This document shows positions 8,800 through 63,309 of a stretch of DNA of 64,000 bases, one piece after another. Source of the stretch: Torpedo marmorata (lineage: Eukaryota); the NCBI GenBank assembly GCA_977017645.1, contig OZ360222.1:44950001-45014000 (forward strand). Direction: 5' to 3'. A program made the position numbers and the translations under genes. Position 1 is the stretch's first letter; the number at the start of each line of letters is the position of its first letter. The notes under the pieces were generated by a model. That model worked only from the letters and a program-made list of their open reading frames with translations. It had not been told where the DNA came from and ran no database searches.

Positions 8800-9130
8800 A
8801 ATAGAGTCGGAGCCCAGAACAAGCCCTTCAGGCCAACTCGTCCATGCCGACCAAGTTGGCATTCTGGGCTAGTCCCATTTGGGCCACATCCTGAGCCCTT
8901 CCGATCCACAAATCTGTCCAAATATCCTTTGAATTTCGCAAGTGTGCCCACTTCTGCAGTTTCCTCTGGCAACTCATTCCAGATACAGACAACCCGCTGA
9001 GTGAAAAAGTTGCTTCTCAGATCCCTCTTCAATACTTCCCTTCTCATCTTAAAGCTATGCCCTCTATTTCTAGAATTATCTACCATGGGAAAAAAGACTG
9101 TAGGCATTCACTTTTTCCATGACCCTCATA
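8800..9130 (-). mobile_element. CR1 LINE 3' fragment
   Basis: RGHSFK...NFFTQRVV..WNELP..., the CR1 ORF2 C-terminus. Confidence 0.8.
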
Positions 9131-11736: not shown

Positions 11737-14451
11737 TGTCATGTATTCTATGTTAAGAAATACACTGCAGACAAAGGCATGATGCTTTGTTAGTCATTTA
11801 ATACAAATCTGAAAATGGTTCTCCCACCACACACAGTATATATCAGTCAGAACGTCATTACGTTGACGTGATGACGTCATACGCCTGTAGGCGTATACAT
11901 AACACTCTTCCCCCCCCACAAAATAAATGTTTGTATAATTATATATATATATGTGTGCAGTATTTATAATAAACTGCAATAACTATGTGTGGGTGCAGTA
12001 TTTAAGCGTAATACATGGAGCCTCTAGACTAATGGTGATTACAATTACAATGTAATGTAAGTATAAAAATGATAAAATGTTAAGTTACTGAACATAGTCT
12101 TTCAGTCGTTCTGGCGGACGTTTTTCCCGTTTTGATCATCTCAGAGAGGTCGACTCTGTCGGGATATTTTGCGGACTCTTCGCCTTTTGGGGTGGTACCT
12201 CGGTTGGTGGCAAGGACTGTGAACTTGATCTTTGGCGAACCTCACTCGGCTGTTGTATAGGACTGGGTTGTTGAAGAGGACTGGTCTGTTGAGGGCCTCT
12301 TGGTTGAGGAGGGGTCTGTTGAGGGCTACTTGGTTGAGAAGGGGTCTCCCTTCTCACGGATATTTCTGGAGCCCAGGGAATTTCATCTGGAAGCTCATCG
12401 GGATCTTGAGCCGAAGGCATGGCCATAGGATCATCTACTGCTCTTAACTGGTCGATGTGTCGTTTCCATATTTTAGTTCCCACCAGTATAGAATAAGAAC
12501 AGGGACTTAGTTTTTTTAAGAATAACCCCTCTTATCCACGGCTCTTTGGAGTCTCGGTAATCCCGTACCGGTACTCGCTTTCCCGTTTCTAGAGATCTGG
12601 TAGGTTTACTTGGAGACGTGGATTGCTGTATGCGAAGGCCGATGTTCGGATGTACTGTGGAAAGTCTTGTTCTTAAGTTACGTCCAAACATTAATTCAGC
12701 CGGTGTTCTTTTGGTTGTAGAGTGTGGCATGTTTCTATATCCGAATAGGAAATCTGCGATTTTGTGATTCCATGATGCGTTTAGGAGTTTTTTAGTTTTC
12801 ATGGCTTTTTTGAAAGTCTGCACAAAACGTTCAGCTTCTCCATTAGTGCTGGGGTGGTAGGGTGCAGATAAGACATGTCGTATATTATTATTACATAGGA
12901 ATACTTTAAAAGCATCCGATACAAACTGTGGACCATTATCGGAAACGAGTTCAATAGGCAATCCATATAACGCAAATATACTTCGTAGTCTTTCAATGGT
13001 CTGGTCTGTTGTTGTTTTTTTTCATGTGGGATACCACTGGCCATTTAGAGTGTGCATCGACAACAATGAGGAAGTTTTCTCCCATAAATGGACCAGCGAA
13101 ATCAATGTGAATTCTGTGCCATGGTTGCGATAGCCATTTCCATGGATTAGCTTCGGCTTGAGGAGCTTTGGGTTGCATGTCTTGACAAATGCCACATCTT
13201 CTTACTGTTTGTTCAATATCAATGCCTATTGAGGGCCACCAGACATGCATACGTGCCAATGCCTTCATCCGAACCATCCCGGGGTGGTTGTTATGGAGTT
13301 CGGATAACATGGCCGTTTGCCATTTTGTAGGGATGATTGTTCTGGTTCCCCACAATAAACAACCTTCTTCAATTGATATCTCCTGCCATCGTGTATAATA
13401 AGGTCTTAGCTCTTCAGAAATAGCTTCGGCCTTGGGCCATCCATTTAATGTGAAGTACAGGACTTTTGATAGTGTAGCTTCTTTCCGTACCTCTTTGCTA
13501 TCGTCTTTGCCGTAATTGGTAAGCGGTGAAGTTGTTCTTGATTAATAGCTGTAGCTTCTGCCGTCCATTTAATTATCTCGTCTTTTTGTTCAGTTTCTGG
13601 TAGCGGTAAGCGAGACAGAGCATCAGCATGGTTGTTTTGTGTTGCTGGTTTATGTTTCAAATCGTAATTATACGCGGCGAGCATCATGGCCCACCTTTGA
13701 ATTCTTGTTGCAGCTAGCACTGGTATCCCCTTTTTAGGGCCTAGAATCAAACTTAGTGGTTTGTTGTTTGTTACTAAGGTAAATTTCCTGCCATATAAGT
13801 ATTGGTGGAATCGTTTGACACCAAATATTATGGCCAGCCCTTCTTTTTCCAGTTGTGCATAATTACGTTCACAAGTCGTCAAAGACCGGGAGGCATAAGC
13901 AACCAGTTGTTCTCCTTTTTCTGTTATCTGTGACAACACTGCTCCTAATCCTACTGGTGAAGCATCCACCGCAAGAGTCACTTCAGCAGCCCCAGCAATA
14001 TTTCAAGCAACCATGGACAAATTATTACATGGCATTAATGTAGGATGTTACCTCGATGACATTATAATCACAGGCCAGGACGATGCTGAAAACCTATCCA
14101 ACCAAGAAAAAGTCCTAACGCGATTGCAACAAGCAAACGTCCGTCTGCGCCGAGACAAGTGTGTATTTATGGTACCTTCCGTAACATATTTAGGCTTTAC
14201 AATTAACAGTGAAGGAGTCCGAATGGACACCGCAGGTACCGAAGCTGTCCGCAGAGCACCCTATCCCATCCTCGTCGCCAATCTGTCATGTATTCTATGT
14301 TAAGAAATACACTGCAGACAAAGGCATGATGCTTCGTTAGTCGTTTAATACAAATCTGAAAATGGTTCTCCCACCACACACAGTATATATCAGTCAGAAC
14401 GTGATTGCATTGACGTGATGACGTCATACGCCTGTAGGCGTATACATAACA
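11737..14451 (-). mobile_element. Ty3/Gypsy LTR retrotransposon, internally deleted and partly inverted
   Basis: 168-bp LTRs at 11737-11904 and 14284-14451; TSD GCCTC; PPT at about 11905-11917; PBS at 14263-14280; RNase H (DAS..GLGAVL, NYAQLEKE) and integrase (H..HPG..C..C, SDNGPQF, NGEAER) on minus; RT YLDD fragment on plus. Confidence 0.95.
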
Positions 14452-24800: not shown

Positions 24801-25153
24801 AGGTTCACTAAAGTTTGGGGGGCGGGGGAGTTGGGGAAAGGAAGGAGAAGGGGGAAAATGCTAGTTTGGTGTGAGATTGGAACAATTTAAAAAGGTTACA
24901 TCACGCCTTGACAGGTCGCACCTCTCCAATACAACCAATACAAAAGGAACCGTTAGATCTATGAGGGGAAACGGCATATCGCTATACAAAGTATATTTCA
25001 GAATTGAAACAAACTTTGGCAACAACTTTTGATCGTTGTTTTCTTCCAACTTCATAGAACATTGTTACCTTTCCTTTCCCCCCACCACCACCGAAAAGTT
25101 TTTTTTTTTGCTAGTTAAGGTTTACATTTTCGATGTTCGGGATATTACTGCAC

Positions 25154-25453
25154 CTTTTGGTCCACGATAGAACAGACGAGATCCTTGACGGCAGAGAGGG
25201 AGATGTCTTGTGCTTCGATGGTCACCGGTTCGCGAGTGAGGCCGATCTGCAGAAGGAAGGAGACGCCGTTGAAGGATCCCCGGGAATTGGTGGGACTCGG
25301 GGCACTGAAACTCCCATTGGAAACCCGGCCGGAAAGCACAGCAGAGGTGGCCGGCGGGGAGAGCGACGGGGTGGGCGAAGAGGCGGGCAGCGGCAGAGCG
25401 GATGGCAGCAATCTCTGGGACACGGGAGGAGACGAGTTGCTGTTGCTTGACAT
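25154..25453 (-). CDS. PRKD3: Serine/threonine protein kinase D3, first coding exon (100 codons)
   Basis: Translation MSSNSNSSPP...GRVSNGSFSAPSPTNSRGSFNGVSFLLQIGLTREPVTIEAQDISLSAVKDLVCSIVDQK matches the PRKD3 N-terminus as recalled (SNGSFSAPS..SRGS..VSFLLQIGLTRE.VTIEAQ..SLSAVKDLVCSIV.QK). It ends at a phase-0 donor AAG|GTGCAG at 25154/25153, just before the expected FPECG exon. Confidence 0.93.
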
Positions 25454-25865
25454 CTGGCTGGCTCCCCGGCGATTAATTTCCACTCTGAAACTTCCAGCGT
25501 TGCAACAAAAAAAAAACCAACAGAGAAACAACGCAGTAGTCCAAACAGTCCACTTTCCCGTCGCTTTGCTGCGATGCAAACGGGTTTGCAGGCTAGCGGC
25601 CTGGCATTTGCCGTCAAGTTTTGTTCAACGGGAGCACTCTCTTGATTTCCCACTCATGTTTCCCCCACCCCACCCCCCCTCCTCTCCTCTCCTCTCCTCC
25701 TCCTCTCTTCGCTCCCTGTACTTTCAATCCGCCGTCACAGACGTTCAGTCCGTCACCGGAAATACTCTGCAAGGGAGAAAAAAAAAGAGGGGGCGGCTTG
25801 TCGAATAGATGATTTTTAAGCATGTTTCCAACTTTCCGACATGTGCACCAAGTCACAAAAATAAC
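25454..25865 (-). other. PRKD3: Probable PRKD3 5' UTR part of the first coding exon
   Basis: Candidate acceptor ...CTCACTGTCAG|GTTATTT at 25866/25865, with a C-rich run upstream on the minus strand; lies in a CpG-rich zone. Confidence 0.55.
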
Positions 25866-51495: not shown

Positions 51496-51999
51496 CATGA
51501 TTGCTAAATGATACAAGTGCATTGTGAAGTAGCCAATTTCTATTGTCTAAATTTCTGCACGGGTCATTTGTCTCATTTGCCTGGGATACTATTTCAATTG
51601 CCACTTAACAGTTAACCTTTTAGTTTTCATAATATACCAGTATTATTAATTTAGTAGAGTATCTATAACAAAAGATACTTAATAAAATGATTCATTGTGA
51701 TAACCAGAGTTTCCATGTACTTGTATTTAGTTACTAATTGTTTGTGCCCTTATTAAGCAGTTCCAATATATGCAATACAGACATTTGTAATTACAGTACC
51801 TGGTAATAACTTTGATACTACTTGCACTTAAATACTGTGCGTGTTCTTTCCAGTTACAGAGCAATCCCAACAAATTACTTTTCATACATATTTACTGAAG
51901 TACATATAATTTGCAGCATATTGAAAAATTATTATACTTTAAGAAAAACTTTTTAAAATTGGTTTCCATAATTTGCCTCTCTTTTTCCCCTCTGAGCAA

Positions 52000-52151
52000 T
52001 TAATACTGTGGGAAGGTTGGATCAATTTTATGAGCCCAGGCCATTAATCCACCTTGAATATCCTTCAAGGAATAGAGCTCGTGGTTTAGCATCCCCTGCA
52101 GGATTTTGACAGCCTTCTGCGAATCATTTCCTTGTTTGCAGATAACATACA
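52000..52151 (-). CDS. MOCS3: MOCS3 last coding exon (V)[49 protein letters not shown]
   Basis: Pyrimidine tract plus CCAG| acceptor; rhodanese active-site loop C-K-x-G-N-D-S; Uba4/MOCS3 C-terminus GGL.AW...ID..FP.Y; TAA at 52002-52000. Confidence 0.95.
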
Positions 52152-52260
52152 CTGGAGGTGGAGAGAAAAAAACAATAATTAAATTTAGTTGTTTTTACCT
52201 GCTGGTTCATTGACTAAAATATACCATATAACTAAAATGTGTCACAATGAATGCTTATTT

Positions 52261-55200
52261 TCCAACTTTAATACCTACAATTTTAATATCTTGTCTAATT
52301 AATTCTGCTAAAGGTTCTATTGCTAAAATAAACAATGCTGGCGACAAAGGACATCCTTGTCTAGTTGGCCTAGTCAACAAAACTTTTGTTTTTTTTTAAT
52401 ATATTTTATTTTAAGTTTTCAAATTTTTCACAATAATACAAAATAGTACAAAATATATGATAAACATTAATGAGTTCAATACAAACAAAATTCGTATTAC
52501 CGTGATTCTAACCCCATCTCAACCCACCCTCACTAAAACAACCCACCCTCCACCCTTCCCATCCCTTACTCCCTCCCCTAACTAAAAATAAAGAAAAAAG
52601 AAGAAAGAGGAGAAGACATTGACATTTATCAAAAAAAAAACATCCGTACGGGTCCACGGCTCGGTGCGAGACATTCAATAGTATTCATTCTTTAAGTTTA
52701 AATTTAAGAGAGTCAGCAGGGTCTAGGATGTAGAGCAACACATTTAAATATTCATTCCTAATAATTGGATAAATGGACGCCAAATTTGCAAAAATATCCC
52801 ATATTTATTCCTCATATTATATGTTATTCTTTCCAATGGAATACAACTCCGCATCTATCCATCTATCCATACTTAAATTTATATCCGATTTCCAAGTTAC
52901 TGCTATACATTTCCTTGCTACTGCTAATGCAATTTTTACAAATTTCAATTGCCATGTAGATAACTTCAATTTTGGTCTAGTTCCTTCCACATTTCCCAAT
53001 AAAAATAAATCAGGATTCTGTGGAAATGTAACACCTGTAATTTGTTTTAACCGATTTCCTAGCTCTATCCAAAAACCTTTAACTTTTGGACATGACCACG
53101 TTGAGTGTAAAAAGGTTCCTTCTTCTTCACCACATCTAAAACATCTATTTGATATCATAGAATTTATCTTATTCAATTTTTGTGGTGTAAGATATCATTG
53201 ATGTAAAAAGTTATATTGTACCAATCTATATCTTACATTAACAGTATTAGTCATACTATCTAAACATAAATCCGACCACCTTTTTTCATCAATTGTAACA
53301 TTAAGATCTTGTTCCCATCTTTGTCTAGATTTATGAAGTCCTCGTTTTAAAGCTCCCCTTTGTAGCAAAGAATACACTATAGAAGTAAATTTCTTAATAT
53401 TTCCTTTCCTAATAAGAGTTTCTACCTCACTACAATCTTGTAACAACAAATCTGGACCTAGTTTTTCTCTTAAATAACCTCTTAGTTGAAAATAATAAAA
53501 AAGAGTATTATTGGGTATTCCATATTTATTCCGTAATTGTATAAATGACATCAATTGATTTCCTTCATAACAATCTTCTATCTTCTCTATTCCTTTTAAT
53601 GATCAAGTATTTAAAAATTGATTATCTTTTGTAAATGGTATAAGGTTATTCTGTATCAAAGGCACTTTGGGTGATATACTTCCTTTCAACCCTATGTCAT
53701 CATTAACCTTATTCCAAACATTAATCAAATGTTTTAATAACGGCGTTTCTTTAACACCTGTCAATAGTTTTGAATTCCATTTGTATATAAATTCTTGTGG
53801 TACCTTTTCTCCTATTTCTCCTAGTTCTATTCCAACCCACGCAGGTCTTTCTTCAGTTTCAAAAAAAGAAGCAACAAATCGCATTTGTGCCGCTCGGTAA
53901 TAATTCTTAAAATTAGGGAGTTGCAAACCCCCCAATTCATATTTCCATGTTAAACGTTCCATTGAAACTCTTGACATTTTACCTTTCCATAAAAATTTTC
54001 GCACTTGTTTATTTAAGTCCTGAAAGAAAACCTGTGGTAATAAAATAGGTATAGTCTGATACAAATACTGTATCCTTGGAAATATATTCATTTTGATACA
54101 GTTAACTCTTCCTATCAGTGTAATTGGTAAATTAGTCCACTTTTCTAAATCCTCCTTAATCTTGTTAAGTAATGGTACATAGTTCCATTTATATAGATTT
54201 TTTAATTTATTATCTGTCCGAACCCCAAGATATTTTATTCCATTATGTGGCCATTTAAACTGAGTAGTTCTTTTGCATACAGTATAGTCTCCCTCTGTAA
54301 GAGGCATAACTTCACTTTTATCCCAATTTATCTTGTAACCAGAGACTTTTCCATATTCCTTCAACAAAACTTTTGAAGAAATTTGTCCATTTGTCACCAC
54401 TCTCGCAAAAGGTTCTTTATATATAGTTTTAATCCAATTAATAAATGTATTTCCAAAACCAAATTTTTCTAACACTTTAAATAAATAGTTCCACTCTAAT
54501 CTATCAAAAGCTTTTTCGGCATCTAATGTTAATACTAATGCTAATTCTTTCTTTTGTGCCACATTTATTAAACTAATCAATATTATCCTTTGAACATCTA
54601 TTTTTAATAAAATCTGCTTGATCAGCATGAATTAAATCAGGTAAATATATCGCCACTCTATTTGCTAAAATTTTTGCCATTATCTTATAATCTACATTTA
54701 ACAATGAAATCGGCCTATATGATTCCGTTTTCAACAAATCTCTATTTTTTTTGGTATAACCGTTATTATTGCATTTGAAAACGTTTCCGGTAGAGAATGA
54801 GATTCCGTTATTTTTAACACCTCCATATATGGAGGTATCAATAAATCCTTAAATTCCTTATAAAATTCTGATGGGAAACCATCCTCCCCCGGAGTCTTTC
54901 CACTTGTCAAGGAACTAAGAGCATCATTAACTTTCTCTCATCGTAAACGATGCATCTAAAAATTCTTTACCTTGAATATTTAATCTAGGTAATTTAACTT
55001 TAGATAAAAATTCATTAATTTTAGATTCATCTTTATCAGTTTAAGATTTATATAAATTTAAATAAAATTCCTTTCTCGAGGTTTATATGTTGGAAAAGAA
55101 GAACATAAAATTAGTTTGTTTGCAGATGATGTATTGATTTACATGACAAAACCTATTGATTCTTTAATGCAACTGACTGTTTTATTGAGAGAATATGGGG

Positions 55201-57034
55201 AAATATCTTGTTATAAGATTAATTCTAATAAAAGTGAAATTATGGCATTGACACAAGGAGATTATAATAAATGTAAAGAAACTACTCGATTTAAATGGTC
55301 TAATAATGGAATTAAATATTTGGGAATAAAAATAGATACAAAATTAGGTAATTTATATAAATTAAATTATTTACCATTATTTACTAATATTAAAAAAGAT
55401 TTAGAGAATTGGAAAGACTTACCTATAACTTTAATAGGAAGGGTAAATTGTATCAAAATGAATGTCTTTCCAAGAATTCAATATCTTTTTCAATCAATTC
55501 CTTATGAAATTCCTCAATTTTTTTAAGGATTTAATTTTAATTATTAGGAAATTTTTGTGGAAAGGAAAGTTGGCTAGAGTAGGTATGGAGAAATTAACCT
55601 GGGATTACGAAATGGGTGGTTTACAACTTCCCAATTTTCAAATTTATTATAAAGTAGCTCAATTAAAATTTATTAACGAAATGTTTGATTTAGGAAAATC
55701 TTCTGCTTGTATTAGAATAGAACTAAATAATATAGGAGAAGATTTGAAAGAAGTTATTTATAAATGGAATTCTAAATTATTATTAGGAGGAGGTAAAAAC
55801 TCTCCTATTTTAAGGCATTTGTTAGAAATATGGAATAAAATTGATAGGGAGATAGGAGGGAAAGGGTTAATTTCTTGTAAAATGCCTTTATATCAAAATA
55901 AACATCCTATTTACTATTGATAATCAATTGTTTAAAATTTGGTTTCAAAAAGGGATTAAAAAAGTAAATGACTGTTTTGAAGCTGGTAAATTTATCACTT
56001 TTCAAAGAATGAAAGAGAAGTTTAATGTATTAAATAATACACTCTTTGCTTATTATCAATTAAGAGCATTTTTCTTGAAAAGTTAGGACATAGTTTAATC
56101 TTACCAAGACAAAGTGAATTGGAGTTACTAGTTATTAATGGGGGTATAAATAAATTTATTTCTCAAATGTATAGATTGTTACAGAAAAAAATGCCTAAAC
56201 CAGGAATTCATAAATCAAGATTAAAATGGGAATTAGATCTGAATGTAACAATAGATGAGGAACATTGGAAAGAAATATGTAAACAAAGTATGACGAAGAT
56301 TATTAACGTTAGATATAGGTTAGTGCAATATAACTTTTTGCATCAGTTATATTTAACTCCTAAGAAACTAAAGAAATTTAATCCGACATTATCAGGTTTA
56401 TGTTTTAGATGTAATAAGGAGGAAGGTTCTTTTGTACATTCTATGTGGTTTTGTCCAAAGATATATGATTTTTGGTTGAAAGTTAAAAAGTTTTTAGATA
56501 AAGTATTAAGAATGACACTCCCAATGGATCCTATGATATTTTTGATTGGAGATATTAAAAGAATTAGTATTAAAATGAGATTAAATAATTACCAAATAGA
56601 ATTTTTGTGAATTGCTTTAGCTGTTTCAAAGAAATGCATTGCTATTACATGGAAATCTGATGTAGATTTAGGGTTAGAAAGATGGCATGCAGAACTTCGT
56701 TCATGCATACCACTTAAAAAAATTACCTATAATTTAAGTAATAAATATCATTTCTTTTTGAAGGTATGGAGCCCATATATAAAAACTGTGGGTTTAAGGA
56801 TTTGAAGATCTCTTGATATCGGGTCTGACTGGTGAACCTGTGTTCCCAATAAAATTAATCTATAGTTGTTTTCTTTTAGAATGACATTCTCCACACTCTA
56901 TTCTTTTCTTTCTTTTTTTAGTAGAGTAGAGGGGGTGCGTGGGTTAGGGAGGGGGAAGGAAGGGAGGGGAGGGTGAAAATATATCACATGTATTATCGTG
57001 TGATTTAAAATTTTAAATAAAATATTTTTTAAGA
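52261..57034. mobile_element. L1 with 5' inversion (twin priming): inverted part on minus (52261-52388 plus 54376 to about 55072), direct part on plus (about 55085-57034)
   Basis: 15-bp TSD AATGAATGCTTATTT at 52246-52260 and 57035-57049; the ORF2 reading ...VGIKVG | KEEHKISLFADD is continuous between the TSD-proximal end of the inverted part and the start of the direct part. Confidence 0.88.
52389..54360 (-). mobile_element. Second 5'-truncated L1 nested in the inverted segment
   Basis: 15-bp TSD TCAACAAAACTTTTG at 52374-52388 and 54361-54375; poly(A) tail and AATAAA at about 52389-52410. Confidence 0.88.
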
Positions 57035-57069
57035 AATGAATGCTTATTTAAGATTTAGGAATTACGAGT

Positions 57070-57390
57070 CTGTTTCCCATGGCTGAGGTGTCGAAAGGTA
57101 GAGGGCATGCATGTGCTTAAGGTGAGAGTGAGAAGGTTTAAAGGGTATCTGAAGGGTAATTTTTTCCACACAAAGTACGGTTGGTATCTGGAATAAGCTT
57201 CCAGAGGAGGAAGTGGTGGCAGGAATTGTAACAATGTTTAAGTGGCACCTGGACAGATACTTCAAATGGCGAGGCAACTGAGGGATTTTGAATTAATGCA
57301 AGTGTGATTAATGTAGATGGGCATAATGGTCACTAGAGTCATAGTGGGCTGAAGGGTCTGTTTCCATTCAATCCAGGTCTATAACTATGA
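57070..57390 (+). mobile_element. CR1 3' fragment
   Basis: Degenerate RGH..KV...FFTQ..V.IWN.LP; CTATGACT-like tail. Confidence 0.7.
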
Positions 57391-57985
57391 CTCAATGATT
57401 TGAAACAAAGCTCTAAGTTATTGTCAGTGCTAATATGGAATTTTATTCCAATTACCACAGAATTTGTAAGGAAATCAGAAATGCTTTCTTGGATTGACAT
57501 ATTTCAACATTTTTCTGAAAAACACAATGCAGTATTAATTAAATGTTGTATCTTAAAATCAAAAATTTGTTTTGTTTTTATTACTGTGTTCCTGGTAGGC
57601 TGAAATTCCTCCTAAAAGATAAACCAAGAGCCCCCCCTGGTGATGAAAGTTCAAACAGAAAGGCATGGTACAAACACAAACTGTCTGGAGGCATTCAGAG
57701 AGTTGAGCAGTATCTGTGGAGGGTGGGCAGAGAGATAAGGAAATGTCAGCAATTTGGGCCGAGGCCCTGCATCAGGACAGGTCAATCTGCCGAGTTCCCA
57801 AGGAGCACATGTAAACTCCACACAGACAGCACCTGAGATCATGATTGAACCTGTATCTCTGGAGCTGTGAGAGAGCAGTGCAAAATGCTGCATCACTATG
57901 TTGCCTTTTTTTCTAGAATTGCAATTAGGGGAGATCGTTACAACGTAAACAACCAACGTATAGAGACCACATAATAAAAATGTAC

Positions 57986-58096
57986 CTGGGAAGGTGACTT
58001 TATCAGCTGCTTCATTATTTCTCTTCTCGTTGATGTTATTCCATAACAGCTTCATGCATTCAACATTCTTTTCTTCGAGATCAGTCAATGGAATAT
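57986..58096 (-). CDS. MOCS3: MOCS3 exon (Y)IPLTDLEEKNVECMKLLWNNINEKRNNEAADKVTFP
   Basis: Acceptor GTCAG|AT and donor CCAG|GTACA; 111 nt, phase 1/1; joins both neighbouring exons in frame. Confidence 0.88.
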
Positions 58097-58764
58097 CTGA
58101 CATTGTGCTTAAGAAACAATACTAAAAGCTTTTAATCTGAAAACAAGATCAATTATTCATGCAAAATAATTACAAACAAGGTGAGTTGATGAAGAGAATA
58201 CAGATTGACTCTACCAATCATCCAGAAACCGAGACTAATGACTTTGGGACACGAGGAATTAAATAGTTACAACCAAAATGGATAGGAAACTAGCTTAAAG
58301 GTAGTAGTGGTAAATGGTTATTTTTCTGGACAGAAGTATGACTATGGATAACTCAGATCAATGCTGGGACCACTGCTTTATTCAATACAAATGACTTAGA
58401 CATGAGTACACAAGATAAAATTTCCAAAATCTGCTGATATCAAGAAGCTTGGAAGTGTGGCAAACAGTGAAGAGGATACAATAGTCTGAAAGATAATTTA
58501 GATAGAACAAGTAAACAACTGGGAAAAGAATACAGAGCAAAAATGACCATTGAGGCAGAAAGGGAGATAACATTGTCTAAATGGTGCCATTCTAAAGAGT
58601 GTGTAGGAACAGAGGTACCCAACTGAAGATGTGCATAAATACTTGAGTCATGGGTTTGTTGATAGAATGATTATTAAAGAATATAGTTTCATTACTGGAG
58701 ACAAAGTACAAAAACTGAGGAGTTACTTTGAAAAATCAAAAAGCAGATGCTGGAAATGTAAAAT

Positions 58765-58937
58765 AAAAACAGAAAATACTGGAAATACTCAGCAGGTCAG
58801 GCTGCATCTGTGGGAAGAGAAACAGTGCTCAAGTTTTAGGTCAAAGGCCTTTCATCAGAACAGGTAAACAACTCTGTTGTTTCTCTTCCTACAGATGCGG
58901 CTCAATTCGCTGAGTATTTCCAGTATTTTCTGTTTTT
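58765..58937. repeat. Fold-back element built from Penelope tails
   Basis: Perfect 29-bp inverted repeat at 58765-58793 / 58909-58937, extending imperfectly to about 60 bp; hammerhead-like core in the loop. Confidence 0.8.
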
Positions 58938-60240
58938 GTACAAGTTATTTTGAACCTGAACTCCTGATCTGTGAGAGTATCCTGAACATCTTGGACCCAG
59001 AGACCATTTTTAAATTAGAGGTTGCATGCCAAAATTGTTGCCAGCTTGTCTGTGTACCTGACAAGCAAATGCATAGTAGCCACTGCACATGTACAGTAAA
59101 CACCAATTATTCAAAATTCTATTGTGCAATATTGATCGGAGGAGTGAGACCTGCTTTGGCATATTAATGTGAAGTGTCTACTCTACTTGTGTGACCCTTA
59201 AAGTCCAACTTGCCACCTTTAACTCCCCAACTTTACCACTCCCTCCTTGTTACAGAAGTCATTGAAATTTACCACACACAAAGGAGATCATTGTATCCAA
59301 GTCAATCAAAATATTGTGGATTTGGTTGCTTCCATTTCCCACCTCTTCATCCACATCCCCACATCCTATGGCTGGTCAAGAGTTCTGCTGGTTCATCTTT
59401 ATATATTTGAAGCCTAAAATATTGTTCCCATTATCCACACTGTGAATTTTGTTTAATCTATTCATTTATCAAATATAGTGTTGACAATTAAGTTCTACGC
59501 ATATACCATGAGAGCAAGGTTCCTATTACAGACTTCTTTATACAGCATGTTACACATGATCACTAAAAATCTTGTTAATCATTACCTTTTGCTTCCCCTC
59601 CCAATGAGTCAATTTGGAATCCAGTATGGGGATCCATCTCACCTCCACCTTCTGTGAAACTTAAAACTAACTTATTTTCTCTCTTTCCCAGTTCTGCCAA
59701 ATGGTCTTCAATCCAAAATGTCAACTCTGTTGCTCTTTCACTAACCTGTTGATTATTTCCAATATTTTGTTTTTACCACAGGCCAAGATTTGGGTGCCCT
59801 GGTCCATACATGGAATAAAGGTGCTTAATCAGTTCTGAAATAACTTCTTGGAAGACAAAACAAAGATTTATATTAATAGTTTGAAAAAGAATAAAGCTGC
59901 TCACTTTTGATAACAACCGCAAATTTGTTGAAAGTAGATGAGAAACAATTGTGAAAATAATGCAAAAGCTCAGAAATAACTGCATGAAGACTGGGAAAAC
60001 CAATAATAATAAACTTTAATCAAAGGAAACGAGTAAGTGCAGCAATTAAAAAGGAATCAGTTTGCTGAGTACACCCAGTAAAGCATTTTCTTAAACACTG
60101 CTGAGAACGAAAACATGCATAGTATTTGCAAAATATGATGAATTAACTGCTTTTACACCAAGATGAAGTATAATAGATCAACAGTTTATGTTAAGACAGA
60201 TTTCAGAGAAATTTATAAAACATAACATTTATTGTTGCAG

Positions 60241-61070
60241 CAAGAATGGCGGCGCTGCTGGAGCCGCTGTAGCGGCAGCGCTGCCGCTGGTGCGGACCCG
60301 CGGGGAGCGTGGGAGCGGAGATACAGCGCTCCCACGGGGTCCAGCCGCCCAGTCGACTGCCATCGGTTCCGCACGGGCTTTGAACGGCCCGTTAAAGGAG
60401 CCGACGGTGGTTTTATTTGAGATCCCGCGACCACGGGGTCTGCGCCCAAGATGGCAGCGCCTTTAACCGGCAGCAGCCACGAGGGGCTGCAGACTCCGGG
60501 GAAGCGGAGGACTGGAGCAGGGCACCAGAGGACAGGAAGATCACCCCCGTCTGAGAAGGAGAAGCAGAGGAGACGACCCACGGGACGGTGACCACGGCAG
60601 CGGACAGGTGAGGGGCTCTGAGGCTGAAGGACCAGTGCATGCGGCGGGCTGCTGGCGACTCGAGGAACCCGCGGAGGCTGTGGGCTGCTGTCGGGGGACT
60701 CACACCAGGCTGCGGACTGCTGGAGGCTGGCTCGAACTGGCTGGAGGAGTACCAGGTATCGGAACCGGGATGCGAGGGGGTGCTGAGGGCGCCCTGACCG
60801 TGTTGGAGGTTCGGATCTGGAGCTCGGGTTGCCGATGGTTTGGACTGGACTCTGTGTGGCTGCGGAAGCACTGGAGGCGAATCTATGGACACTCGGTGAC
60901 TCTGAGGGATCTCTTTTGCTTCTCTTTCTCTGACTGTAAGGAATGTTAGAGGCGCTTAGACAATTTCTGCCGGTGGCGAATCTGTCTGCCTTGTAGCAGG
61001 CAAAAAGAAATTTCATGGAATATGACACTGTCTTATTACTATGACAATAAAATGAATCTTGAATCTTGAA
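60241..61070 (+). mobile_element. GC-rich SINE-like repeat, probably the most complete copy
   Basis: Starts AAGAATGGCGGCG; ends TGACAATAAAATGAATCTTGAATCTTGAA; homologous to 6838-7695. Confidence 0.72.
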
Positions 61071-62614
61071 CTTCATAAATTTTAGGCATGCCTTTGAGAA
61101 CATATGGCAAGAAGTGTTCTAGCACATCTTGAAAATGTCTGGTATTGCTGAGAGACTTGTCACAGTGAAAGAAAACAACCACAAGTCCTCGAGCACTGCT
61201 AAAGTGTATAGAAATTGGAAGAAATGGGTTGAATTAATATTTCAGATTAACAAGGATGTACATTGCTTGATTTCTTTATTCTATTACTGGAAGCGGTCAT
61301 AAATATTGAACTGAGAGTTGATTTGGCTTCACACTTTTTGTTTAACATCACTTGGAGTCATGAATGAAATTGTTTTAAAATCCTCAACAAATTCCAAGAT
61401 GAAAATGCTTGCTGGATTCAAGATATTCAGTTCTGATAAACAAGAAAATTGAGAAAACTAATTGAAAAATCACCGAGGTCAAAGAAAGATTATTTATATT
61501 TTAAAACATGAAAACACTGTAAATGCTGACATTATGCAGTATTACCATTTCTAGTTTTATTTGTTAATGCATTAATCTATACAAACAAATGAGTAATTTA
61601 TAAAATGGATTACATCAATTGTTGAATTCTCACAATTGATCTCTTGCTCACATATTTCCTATCCCATCAAATCACCATGAAGGAAAAAAAGGGAGAAAAA
61701 GAATATCTCCAAATACATAACCCCTGTTAATTATCAGAGGTAAATTTTACAAAGTTAGGCTTATTTGCAATAAAGAACGGTCATGAATAGGATTAATACA
61801 AATAAAGAACTGCATAAAGACAAAGAGATCAGGATGAAATAGAAAATAGAAATTTAAACCAGTTAAAAATATGTTTTATTTAATCAAAGTGCTGTTAAGA
61901 GACCAAAGGTTTAAAAGGATAATAGAGACAGGAAATCCATATTGGAGGGGTACATGCTCCTTTATGTCAGTTTCCATTTTTTCTCCCCCATGTATATGTT
62001 TAATTTGAATAGAAACCAAATAGAAAACTATTGACAATGACTAGTAAAGAGAGAGAACACTCTGGCCTAGTAATGTTGATTTCACAAACTGCAAATGAAA
62101 ATTTACTCACCATGGAGTGAAACAAAAAAATGACAGGAAACATTTCCAGGTCATTTCACATCATTCTGGACATATGCTGGTTTGCACAGAAAGTTATATC
62201 TATCCTTCAAGTGATGCAGGTAATAATTCAGTGTTTTTCGTCATTGCACAGAAACTTCTCTAAAGCAAATCCTTTACTTGGCTTCTATTCTTTAGACATC
62301 CTTACCCAATATATTAGCTCATGACATATTCCACCCAAAACCAACCATCAATCTTGTCTTTCAGCCCTCCATTACAACTCTATTATCCAAAACTCCTATC
62401 TCCACTCAACCCCCGGCCATTATATCCAGTATCCTCCTCCCTCACAGCCACTTACCCGATTACCTGAATAACTTGACTTTAATAATGAAAATTATCTGCA
62501 TCATATTCCCTCAATATAGAATGAATGTAGTGGAACTGAAGTAGTTTATAAATTACACCCATTTTCTCCTACTTTTCACTGCATAACAATGAACAAAATT
62601 TAAAAAAAGGATAC

Positions 62615-62711
62615 AAATAGAGCTGGGTAGATGGCAAATATCAACCTCTACTTGTGGGCGAACATCCACCAGGACATGAGGAATATCTTCATCCAAAAGA
62701 TGTTTATATTC
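62615..62711 (-). CDS. MOCS3: MOCS3 exon, start of rhodanese domain [32 protein letters not shown]
   Basis: Acceptor CTGTAG|GAA; 97 nt; conserved [11 protein letters not shown] motif; donor T|GTATCCTTT (phase 1). Confidence 0.92.
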
Positions 62712-62959
62712 CTACAGTTATGGAGAAGGCAAATTATAACAGTGTCAGTACTTCTGAGCAACTTAAAGATCTTCTAAATAACTTGGATTTATGAATATTT
62801 AAAATAAACTGCAAAATTTAAAAAAATGTATAATAATATAAATGTATTCATTTTTCAGGCATGGAAAATGCAATGTATCAACAGAGCTACTACACTTCAA
62901 CTTATAAATGCATAGAAAACATTTGTCCTTGCTATGAAAGTAAAAAGAAAGCAGCTTAC

Positions 62960-63007
62960 CTGTACAGTTATTCTTTGTTCTCCAGTTAACAAATGAAGTG
63001 TCCTACA
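62960..63007 (-). CDS. MOCS3: MOCS3 (adenylyltransferase/sulfurtransferase, Uba4 family) internal exon CRTLHLLTGEQRITVQ
   Basis: Acceptor TTATAG|TGT and donor CAG|GTAAGC; 48 nt, phase 0/0. Resembles the human linker CRSLQLLSPEERVSV. Confidence 0.85.
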
Positions 63008-63309
63008 CTATAATTGGAATGCACAATCAGTGGAAGAGGGTCAGGTGTCAAGATAATAAACAGTAATTGGGTATCTTAAATGTGCACTATAAAACGATAA
63101 TCATTACTTCCTAAATGGGGCATGCAACTTAATCATGGACCACCTTGCATCATTATCATCATTACAACAGAAGATTGACTAAAATTAGGCTTGGATGTAC
63201 AGCCATCTCCAGCAGAAATATTCTCCATAAAATATTACGTGGGATCATAGGACCCACATAAGTATCCCAGTGCTTGAGAAATAAAGGTACCTAATGTGGA
63301 CCTTATTTT

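Follow-up and report, generated by a model that had tools for sequence, protein, structure and literature searches.

The introns considered here are compared with known minor introns, and several earlier results frame the comparison. GT-AG introns are reported to account for ~72% of the minor introns of human and mouse (PMC6717393), while AT-AA is described as the commonest non-canonical minor subtype, with non-canonical termini present in ~3.8% of conserved animal minor introns (PMC10639083). Genes with three minor introns number only three in human and three in mouse, the human figure being 3 of 714 minor-intron genes (PMC6717393). In zebrafish, the mocs3 intron at chr17:42829244-42829344(-) is classed as minor and is mis-spliced in both rnpc3 mutants (PMC11347168, Table S6), and mocs3 has only this one row in the responsive list of that table. 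The human MOCS3 protein, whose Cys412 serves both MOCS2A and URM1 (PMC5372717), is encoded by a single-exon orphan retrogene, the parental gene having been lost (PMC3548309); the portions of PMC3548309 available to us make no mention of minor introns in the parent.

An earlier note on this DNA had proposed a U12-type intron within the MOCS3 rhodanese domain, and had argued that human-centred catalogues cannot contain it since the human gene has no introns. The statement about the human gene agrees with its listing as a single-exon orphan retrogene (PMC3548309), and to that extent the absence from human-centred catalogues stands, but the novelty that it implied was overstated, since there are non-human catalogues and zebrafish mocs3 is already listed. 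One such minor-intron catalogue spans 263 species, including zebrafish, elephant shark, coelacanth and Xenopus (PMC11347168), and another minor-intron survey spans 3107 genomes. In the literature searched, no paper mentions mocs3 together with either "minor spliceosome" or "U12-type intron", and mocs3 was not found in the supplements of PMC10639083, PMC13216214 and PMC9992838 in the parts available to us; online databases and further supplements may list all three of the introns described below. Fish mocs3 is, therefore, already known as a minor-intron gene from the zebrafish, and the ray makes a modest addition, namely, a three-minor-intron architecture, an AT-AA intron and a loss by retro-replacement. 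The molybdoenzyme genes AOX1 and XDH are also human U12 genes (PMC9992838); a co-regulatory link between these and MOCS3 was considered and set aside, there being no evidence for one and none having appeared among the papers listed by a literature search.

Torpedo marmorata MOCS3 Is a 13-Exon Gene at a Single Locus

The window, by which we mean the whole 64-kb stretch of DNA that was analysed, was extended with upstream DNA and the exons were mapped, which gave a MOCS3 gene of 13 exons and 12 introns at a single locus on the minus strand (Table 1). The 13 exons form a frame of 459 amino acids with no internal stops. Its closest protein comes from the electric ray Narcine bancroftii, a MOCS3 model that contains ThiF and Rhodanese domains and is identical at 438 of the 461 aligned positions. 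Exon 11 matches residues 7-37 of the human MOCS3 chain 3i2v_A (E 4e-8), and exon 13 matches the same chain (E 3e-15) with the ray Cys aligned to the 3i2v Cys; the numbering of the latter as Cys412 rests on a length of the human protein that we take to be 460 amino acids. The layout is that of MOCS3/Uba4, with a ThiF/MoeB adenylation domain fused to a rhodanese domain, the catalytic Cys present and the frame intact. In a search of the 6.2-Gb genome with a stricter first look, all 11 matches fell in one locus on C11, and no second MOCS3 locus was found. The match to 3i2v_A, together with the spliced contigs and the intron scores given below, bears out the earlier assignment of the intron to the MOCS3 gene, to the rhodanese domain, to phase 1 and to the interval 58097..62614.

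Table 1. Coordinates of the MOCS3 features. Positions are those of the window unless prefixed by C11.
Feature	Position	Strand	Evidence
Intron 5, non-canonical AT-AA, U12-type, phase 2	C11:45053515-45052328	-	junction in X1 and X7 contigs
Intron 8, GT-AG, U12-type, phase 1	C11:45021510-45017037	-	length sum of X1 contig and restored frame
Exon 10, 48 nt	62960..63007	-	tblastn to ray orthologue; joint to exon 11 in runs X1, X7, X8
Intron 10, ordinary U2-type GT-AG, 248 nt, internal control	62712..62959	-	U2 donor 8/9, U12 donor 5/9; skipped in contigs
Exon 11, start of rhodanese domain; last base is first base of Tyr codon	62615..62711	-	match to 3i2v_A
Intron 11, U12-type GT-AG, phase 1, 4518 nt	58097..62614	-	joint 58096-62615 in X1 and X7; motif scores
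U12-type 5' splice site of intron 11, 9/9 to RTATCCTTT; last exon base T	62606..62614	-	consensus match; predicted pairing with the genome's own U11 and U6atac
First in-frame stop on intron 11 retention, 20 codons past junction	62553..62555	-	frame translation
High-copy repeat within intron 11, bounds approximate	60200..61100	.	very high contig depth; sequence
Upstream AG behind pyrimidine-rich stretch, U2-looking, out of frame	58137..58138	-	unused in spliced contigs
U12-type branch site of intron 11, TTTCTTAAG, 7/9	58108..58116	-	consensus match; sole such motif in intron 11
3' splice site AG of intron 11, no pyrimidine tract after branch site	58097..58098	-	spliced contigs; pyrimidine count
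Exon 12, 111 nt	57986..58096	-	spliced contigs; tblastn to ray orthologue
Exon 13, coding part	52000..52151	-	match to 3i2v_A
Codon of Cys aligned to human persulfide Cys412, exon 13	52140-52138	-	alignment to 3i2v_A

Several other elements were observed in and around the gene. Sequence similar to the repeat of intron 11 (60200..61100) also sits in intron 5, and a decayed reverse-transcriptase fragment (PF00078) lies inside intron 12 (52800-56800, minus strand, in the scanned parts). Further downstream, a stop-free stretch at 25148-25624 on the minus strand has at its end the N-terminal ubiquitin-like domain of protein kinase D (PF25525, E 2e-8); this stretch is probably exon 1 of a PRKD gene that follows MOCS3 on the downstream side. 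A decayed LTR-type RNase H fragment (PF17917) is present at 12100-14000 (minus strand, in the scanned parts). The only other RTATCCTTT of the window, at 8922-8930 on the plus strand, is probably a chance occurrence; the opposite strand at this place resembles the 3' end of a LINE.

The Predicted GT and AG of Intron 11 Are Joined in Spliced Contigs

Contigs of four runs (X1, X2, X7 and X8) were compared with positions 51700-63200 for spliced joints. The joint 58096-62615 was seen in two of the four, X1 (at a depth of 160, with 96 letters on the shorter side) and X7 (at a depth of 10.9, with 30 letters on the shorter side); since these contigs come from related organisms and their RNA nature is guessed or unrecorded, they show the junction rather than the efficiency of splicing. 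The joint was shown neither by the DNA run X2 nor by run X8 in contigs across the same interval. The stretch left out of the spliced contigs in both runs is exactly 4518 bases long and has GT and AG at its ends; there are no shared letters, and the register is unambiguous. The GT and AG predicted from the letters are, thus, the exact ends of the intron in both runs. A further X7 contig that spans the donor into intron 11 (62164-62644, depth 6) may be pre-mRNA or DNA and was not counted as retention.

The joining of exon 11 to exon 12 restores a Tyr codon in phase 1. Of 13 models from sharks, rays and chimaeras, 12 agree with this, and the remaining one begins past the junction. Letters between the two sides of a joint are marked as not known in the contig comparison; however, the X1 contig, of 1694 nt, carries exon 6 at record positions 104-221 and exon 12 from 703, and the modelled exons 7-11 total exactly 481 bases, which is the gap between these two exons; hence, the net gain of letters across introns 6-11 is zero in this contig.

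Intron 11 Carries U12-Type Signals

The U12 class was assigned here from consensus match counts and duplex energies. The U12 and U2 consensus motifs and the branch window of -10..-21 used for scoring are general background or those of the earlier note. The donor of intron 11, GTATCCTTTT, begins at 62614 on the minus strand, precisely where the rhodanese-domain exon 11 ends, and it matches the U12 consensus at 9/9 positions and the U2 consensus at 3/9. At the other end, 11 bases separate TTTCTTAAG from the end of the intron, and the likely branch A is 58109, at -13. Pyrimidines occupy 5 of the 11 positions at -13..-3, the minimum among the 12 introns of the gene (6-10 in the others), and the stretch immediately upstream of the branch site is T-rich. 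Intron 11 skips a U2-looking AG 40 nt upstream, and the AG that is used adjoins the branch site.

When all 12 introns of the gene were scored, introns 5, 8 and 11 had donors at 9/9 for U12 and 3-4/9 for U2, and the other nine had donors at 2-6/9 for U12 and 6-8/9 for U2. Branch matches at -10..-21 were 8, 8 and 7 of 9 in introns 5, 8 and 11 (at -14, -16 and -13) and at most 5/9 in the other nine. The branch site of intron 11 is the weakest of the three (7/9, with G after the branch A). It has neither the CC pair nor a C following the branch A, two features that have been linked to minor-type branch use among minor-like introns (PMC11347168). The claims of the earlier note on the signals hold up well in these counts: its donor fits RTATCCTTT at a used donor, the branch motif that it placed about 12 nt from the AG is found at 58116-58108, the pyrimidine tract whose absence it noted is indeed lacking, and the U12 class agrees with the donor scores (9/9 vs 3/9) and with a branch match (7/9) above any of the nine U2 introns.

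We then examined the minor snRNAs. Matches above the Rfam cut-offs were found in the genome for U12 (four), U11 (two) and U6atac (19). In both U11 copies (L011:1501-1512; L093), a U replaces the Rfam-consensus C just after the 5'-end AAAGGG, which is probably ordinary variation. With the snRNAs of the ray itself, the predicted pairing of the intron 11 donor is -6.9 kcal/mol for U11 and -7.5 kcal/mol for U6atac. The predicted U11:donor pairing ranges from -6.9 to -8.3 kcal/mol in introns 5, 8 and 11 and from -0.2 to -5.7 kcal/mol in the other nine; for U6atac, the corresponding ranges are -7.1 to -8.2 and +2.1 to -4.5 kcal/mol. The U12:branch duplex energy failed to separate the U12-type from the U2-type introns among the 12 of the gene, the predicted value for intron 11 being -6.2, compared to -7.6, -6.7 and -6.3 for the U2 introns 10, 12 and 6.

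Introns 5 and 8 Are Further U12-Type Introns of the Gene

Introns 5 and 8 are both of U12 type and lie upstream of the window, which brings the total for the gene to three (introns 5, 8 and 11). Intron 5 opens with ATATCCTTT and closes with AA. The X1 and X7 contigs pass from exon 6 into the letters of exon 5 in a manner that fits AT..AA, with a one-base ambiguity; the alternative ends AA..CA have no consensus. Contigs of runs X2 and X5 that run into intron 5 contain no differing letter at the AA end or at the branch site, so that the AA end is unlikely to be an assembly error. In run X5, there were 0 differences in the last 34 bases of intron 5 and 9 in the first 111 bases of intron 6, numbers too small to speak for conservation. 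The branch site of intron 8 is GTCCTTAAC, at -16.

Which Spliceosome Removes Intron 11

That intron 11 is an ordinary U2 intron resembling the U12 motifs by chance draws on the motif counts, which equal expectation in the window: RTATCCTTT was found 2 times against 2.11 expected, and TTYCTTAA 13 times against 11.64. Because these counts do not exceed chance, the significance of both motifs rests on their placement at real splice sites, and it is here that a chance resemblance becomes hardly credible. Only 2 of the 11,708 GT sites in the analysed DNA read GTATCCTTT, and both are donors of this gene, those of introns 8 and 11; a branch match of at least 7/9 at -10..-21 is found at 356 of 14,314 AG sites (2.5%); and both signals are present in three introns of one gene.

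The intron could also be of a hybrid or minor-like kind that is shifting towards the major class, with a donor read by U11, a 3' end served partly by U2AF and U2, and a weak dependence on the minor spliceosome. Such a state is conceivable since introns 5 and 8 have stronger branch sites and two minor-type features are missing from that of intron 11; moreover, the T-rich stretch lies upstream of it, its pairing energy is within the range of the U2 introns, and in published datasets ~45% of the minor introns showed no response (PMC11347168). Nevertheless, the donor scores 9/9 for U12 against 3/9 for U2, the T at -1 and A at +1 leave no G at the exon boundaries, like in the responsive introns (PMC11347168), and the U2-looking AG at -40 is unused in favour of the AG with the lowest pyrimidine count of the gene. 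On balance, we regard the hybrid state as unlikely. In summary, intron 11 of the single-locus, 13-exon ray MOCS3 has U12-type signals and is spliced at exactly the GT and AG that were predicted. With high probability the minor spliceosome removes it, and the same is likely for intron 5 (AT-AA) and intron 8 (GT-AG).

Indirect Evidence on the Conservation of the Minor Introns

As an indirect measure of intron conservation we took faulty protein models, which were grouped by hand from the source names; the grouping left out 12 Logan proteins without names, and two others were placed with the cartilaginous fishes by similarity. At the intron 5 junction, 21 of 66 ray-finned models were disturbed, compared to 0-6 at the ten other junctions scored; the corresponding counts were 2 of 54 in sauropsids (both N-terminal partials) and 0 of 30 in mammals. 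Twelve fish models, from elephant shark to cyprinids, read past the intron 5 donor as Tyr-Pro, which corresponds to RTATCC in phase 2, and the read-through models have Ile, Met or Thr directly ahead of exon 6. From these residues we infer AT or AC as the last two bases of intron 5 in bony fishes, and the faulty fish models suggest that the intron is conserved from chimaera to teleosts.

Disturbed models were few at the intron 11 junction, with 1 of 12 in cartilaginous and 1 of 68 in ray-finned fishes. The catshark MOCS3 model begins with Met-Ser-Asp, which is a reading of the end of the ray intron 11, and one coelacanth model carries extra residues at the intron 11 position; these two models speak for the position of the intron rather than for its class. 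Among 150 representatives, two proteins of distant eukaryotes (P0214, P0252) break off at the intron 11 position, and an isoform of the sponge Sycon ciliatum (P0243) breaks off at that of intron 8. Judging by the read-through residues, the donors at these three breaks would be other than RTATCC, those at intron 11 looking like U2 donors, which implies that the positions of introns 11 and 8 may be old and their class different elsewhere.

Exon-boundary deletions occur in coelacanth, lungfish and frog MOCS3 isoforms and are nearly absent in amniotes, a pattern that fits an intron loss on the amniote stem. A metagenome scan for interrupted MOCS3 found none among the 80 loci kept of 597 confirmed, all of these being uninterrupted; 79 of them, at 38-46% identity, are apparently bacterial MoeB-rhodanese genes, and one is at 55%.

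Discussion

In the mechanism that we propose, U11 would pair first with the intron 11 donor, followed by U6atac, and U12 would pair with the branch site, bulging the A at -13; the AG would then be picked by its distance from the branch site, not by a pyrimidine tract. If intron 11 were retained, translation would end 20 codons in, ahead of the catalytic rhodanese Cys. NMD is expected for an intron-11-retaining message, which would probably be degraded in this way. Since retention would stop the protein before the catalytic Cys and expose the message to NMD, low minor-spliceosome activity could reduce the sulfur available for Moco synthesis and tRNA thiolation in fishes, whereas mammals would be without this dependence because their MOCS3 is an intronless retrocopy. 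A dependence of MOCS3 on the minor spliceosome is likely in fishes including the ray, and for the ray the best support comes from the zebrafish data (PMC11347168).

Taken together, the observations lead us to a broader reading, which we offer tentatively and with slightly less than even confidence. In the ancestral jawed vertebrate, MOCS3 would have ranked with the genes richest in minor introns (3 of 12). One of these would be a non-canonical intron with a final dinucleotide that drifts between AA, AT and AC across fishes, its branch site staying fixed, and one retroposition, probably on the amniote stem, would have erased all three. In fishes, but not in mammals, the minor spliceosome would then gate both Moco synthesis and the thiolation of wobble uridines, some of what is seen in zebrafish minor-spliceosome mutants would be without a human counterpart, and orphan retrogenes might be an overlooked route of minor-intron loss. 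The title of PMC10639083 presents much of minor-intron evolution as neutral.

If this holds, MOCS3 would be a clean case of wholesale minor-intron loss through gene replacement, and a defect in Moco or in tRNA thiolation, impossible in humans by this route, may be part of the zebrafish models of minor-spliceosome disease. A gene with three minor introns is invisible to human-based lists since the human copy is a retrogene. For gene annotation, intron 5 with its non-canonical ends seems to disrupt the public gene models, as in 21 of 66 ray-finned ones.

The zebrafish mocs3 minor intron belongs to the orthologous gene and to the same class, but it measures 101 nt compared to the 4518 nt of the ray intron 11, and it may match ray intron 5, 8 or 11, as the row in Table S6 does not say which. 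Compared to the human orphan retrogene, the ray gene encodes the same enzyme, as indicated by the 3i2v match, in 13 exons instead of one. Intron 5 of the ray belongs to the same subtype as the AT-AA non-canonical minor introns (PMC10639083), whereas the same MOCS3 intron would end in AT or AC in bony fishes, going by the faulty models. Taken alone, intron 11 is a textbook vertebrate minor intron, which shares with the vertebrate GT-AG U12-type introns (PMC6717393, PMC11347168) the RTATCCTTT donor, a TTCCTTRAC-type branch site near the 3' end, the absence of a pyrimidine tract and phase 1; it differs from these in two departures of the branch site from the consensus and in a host gene that, in the ray, has three minor introns.
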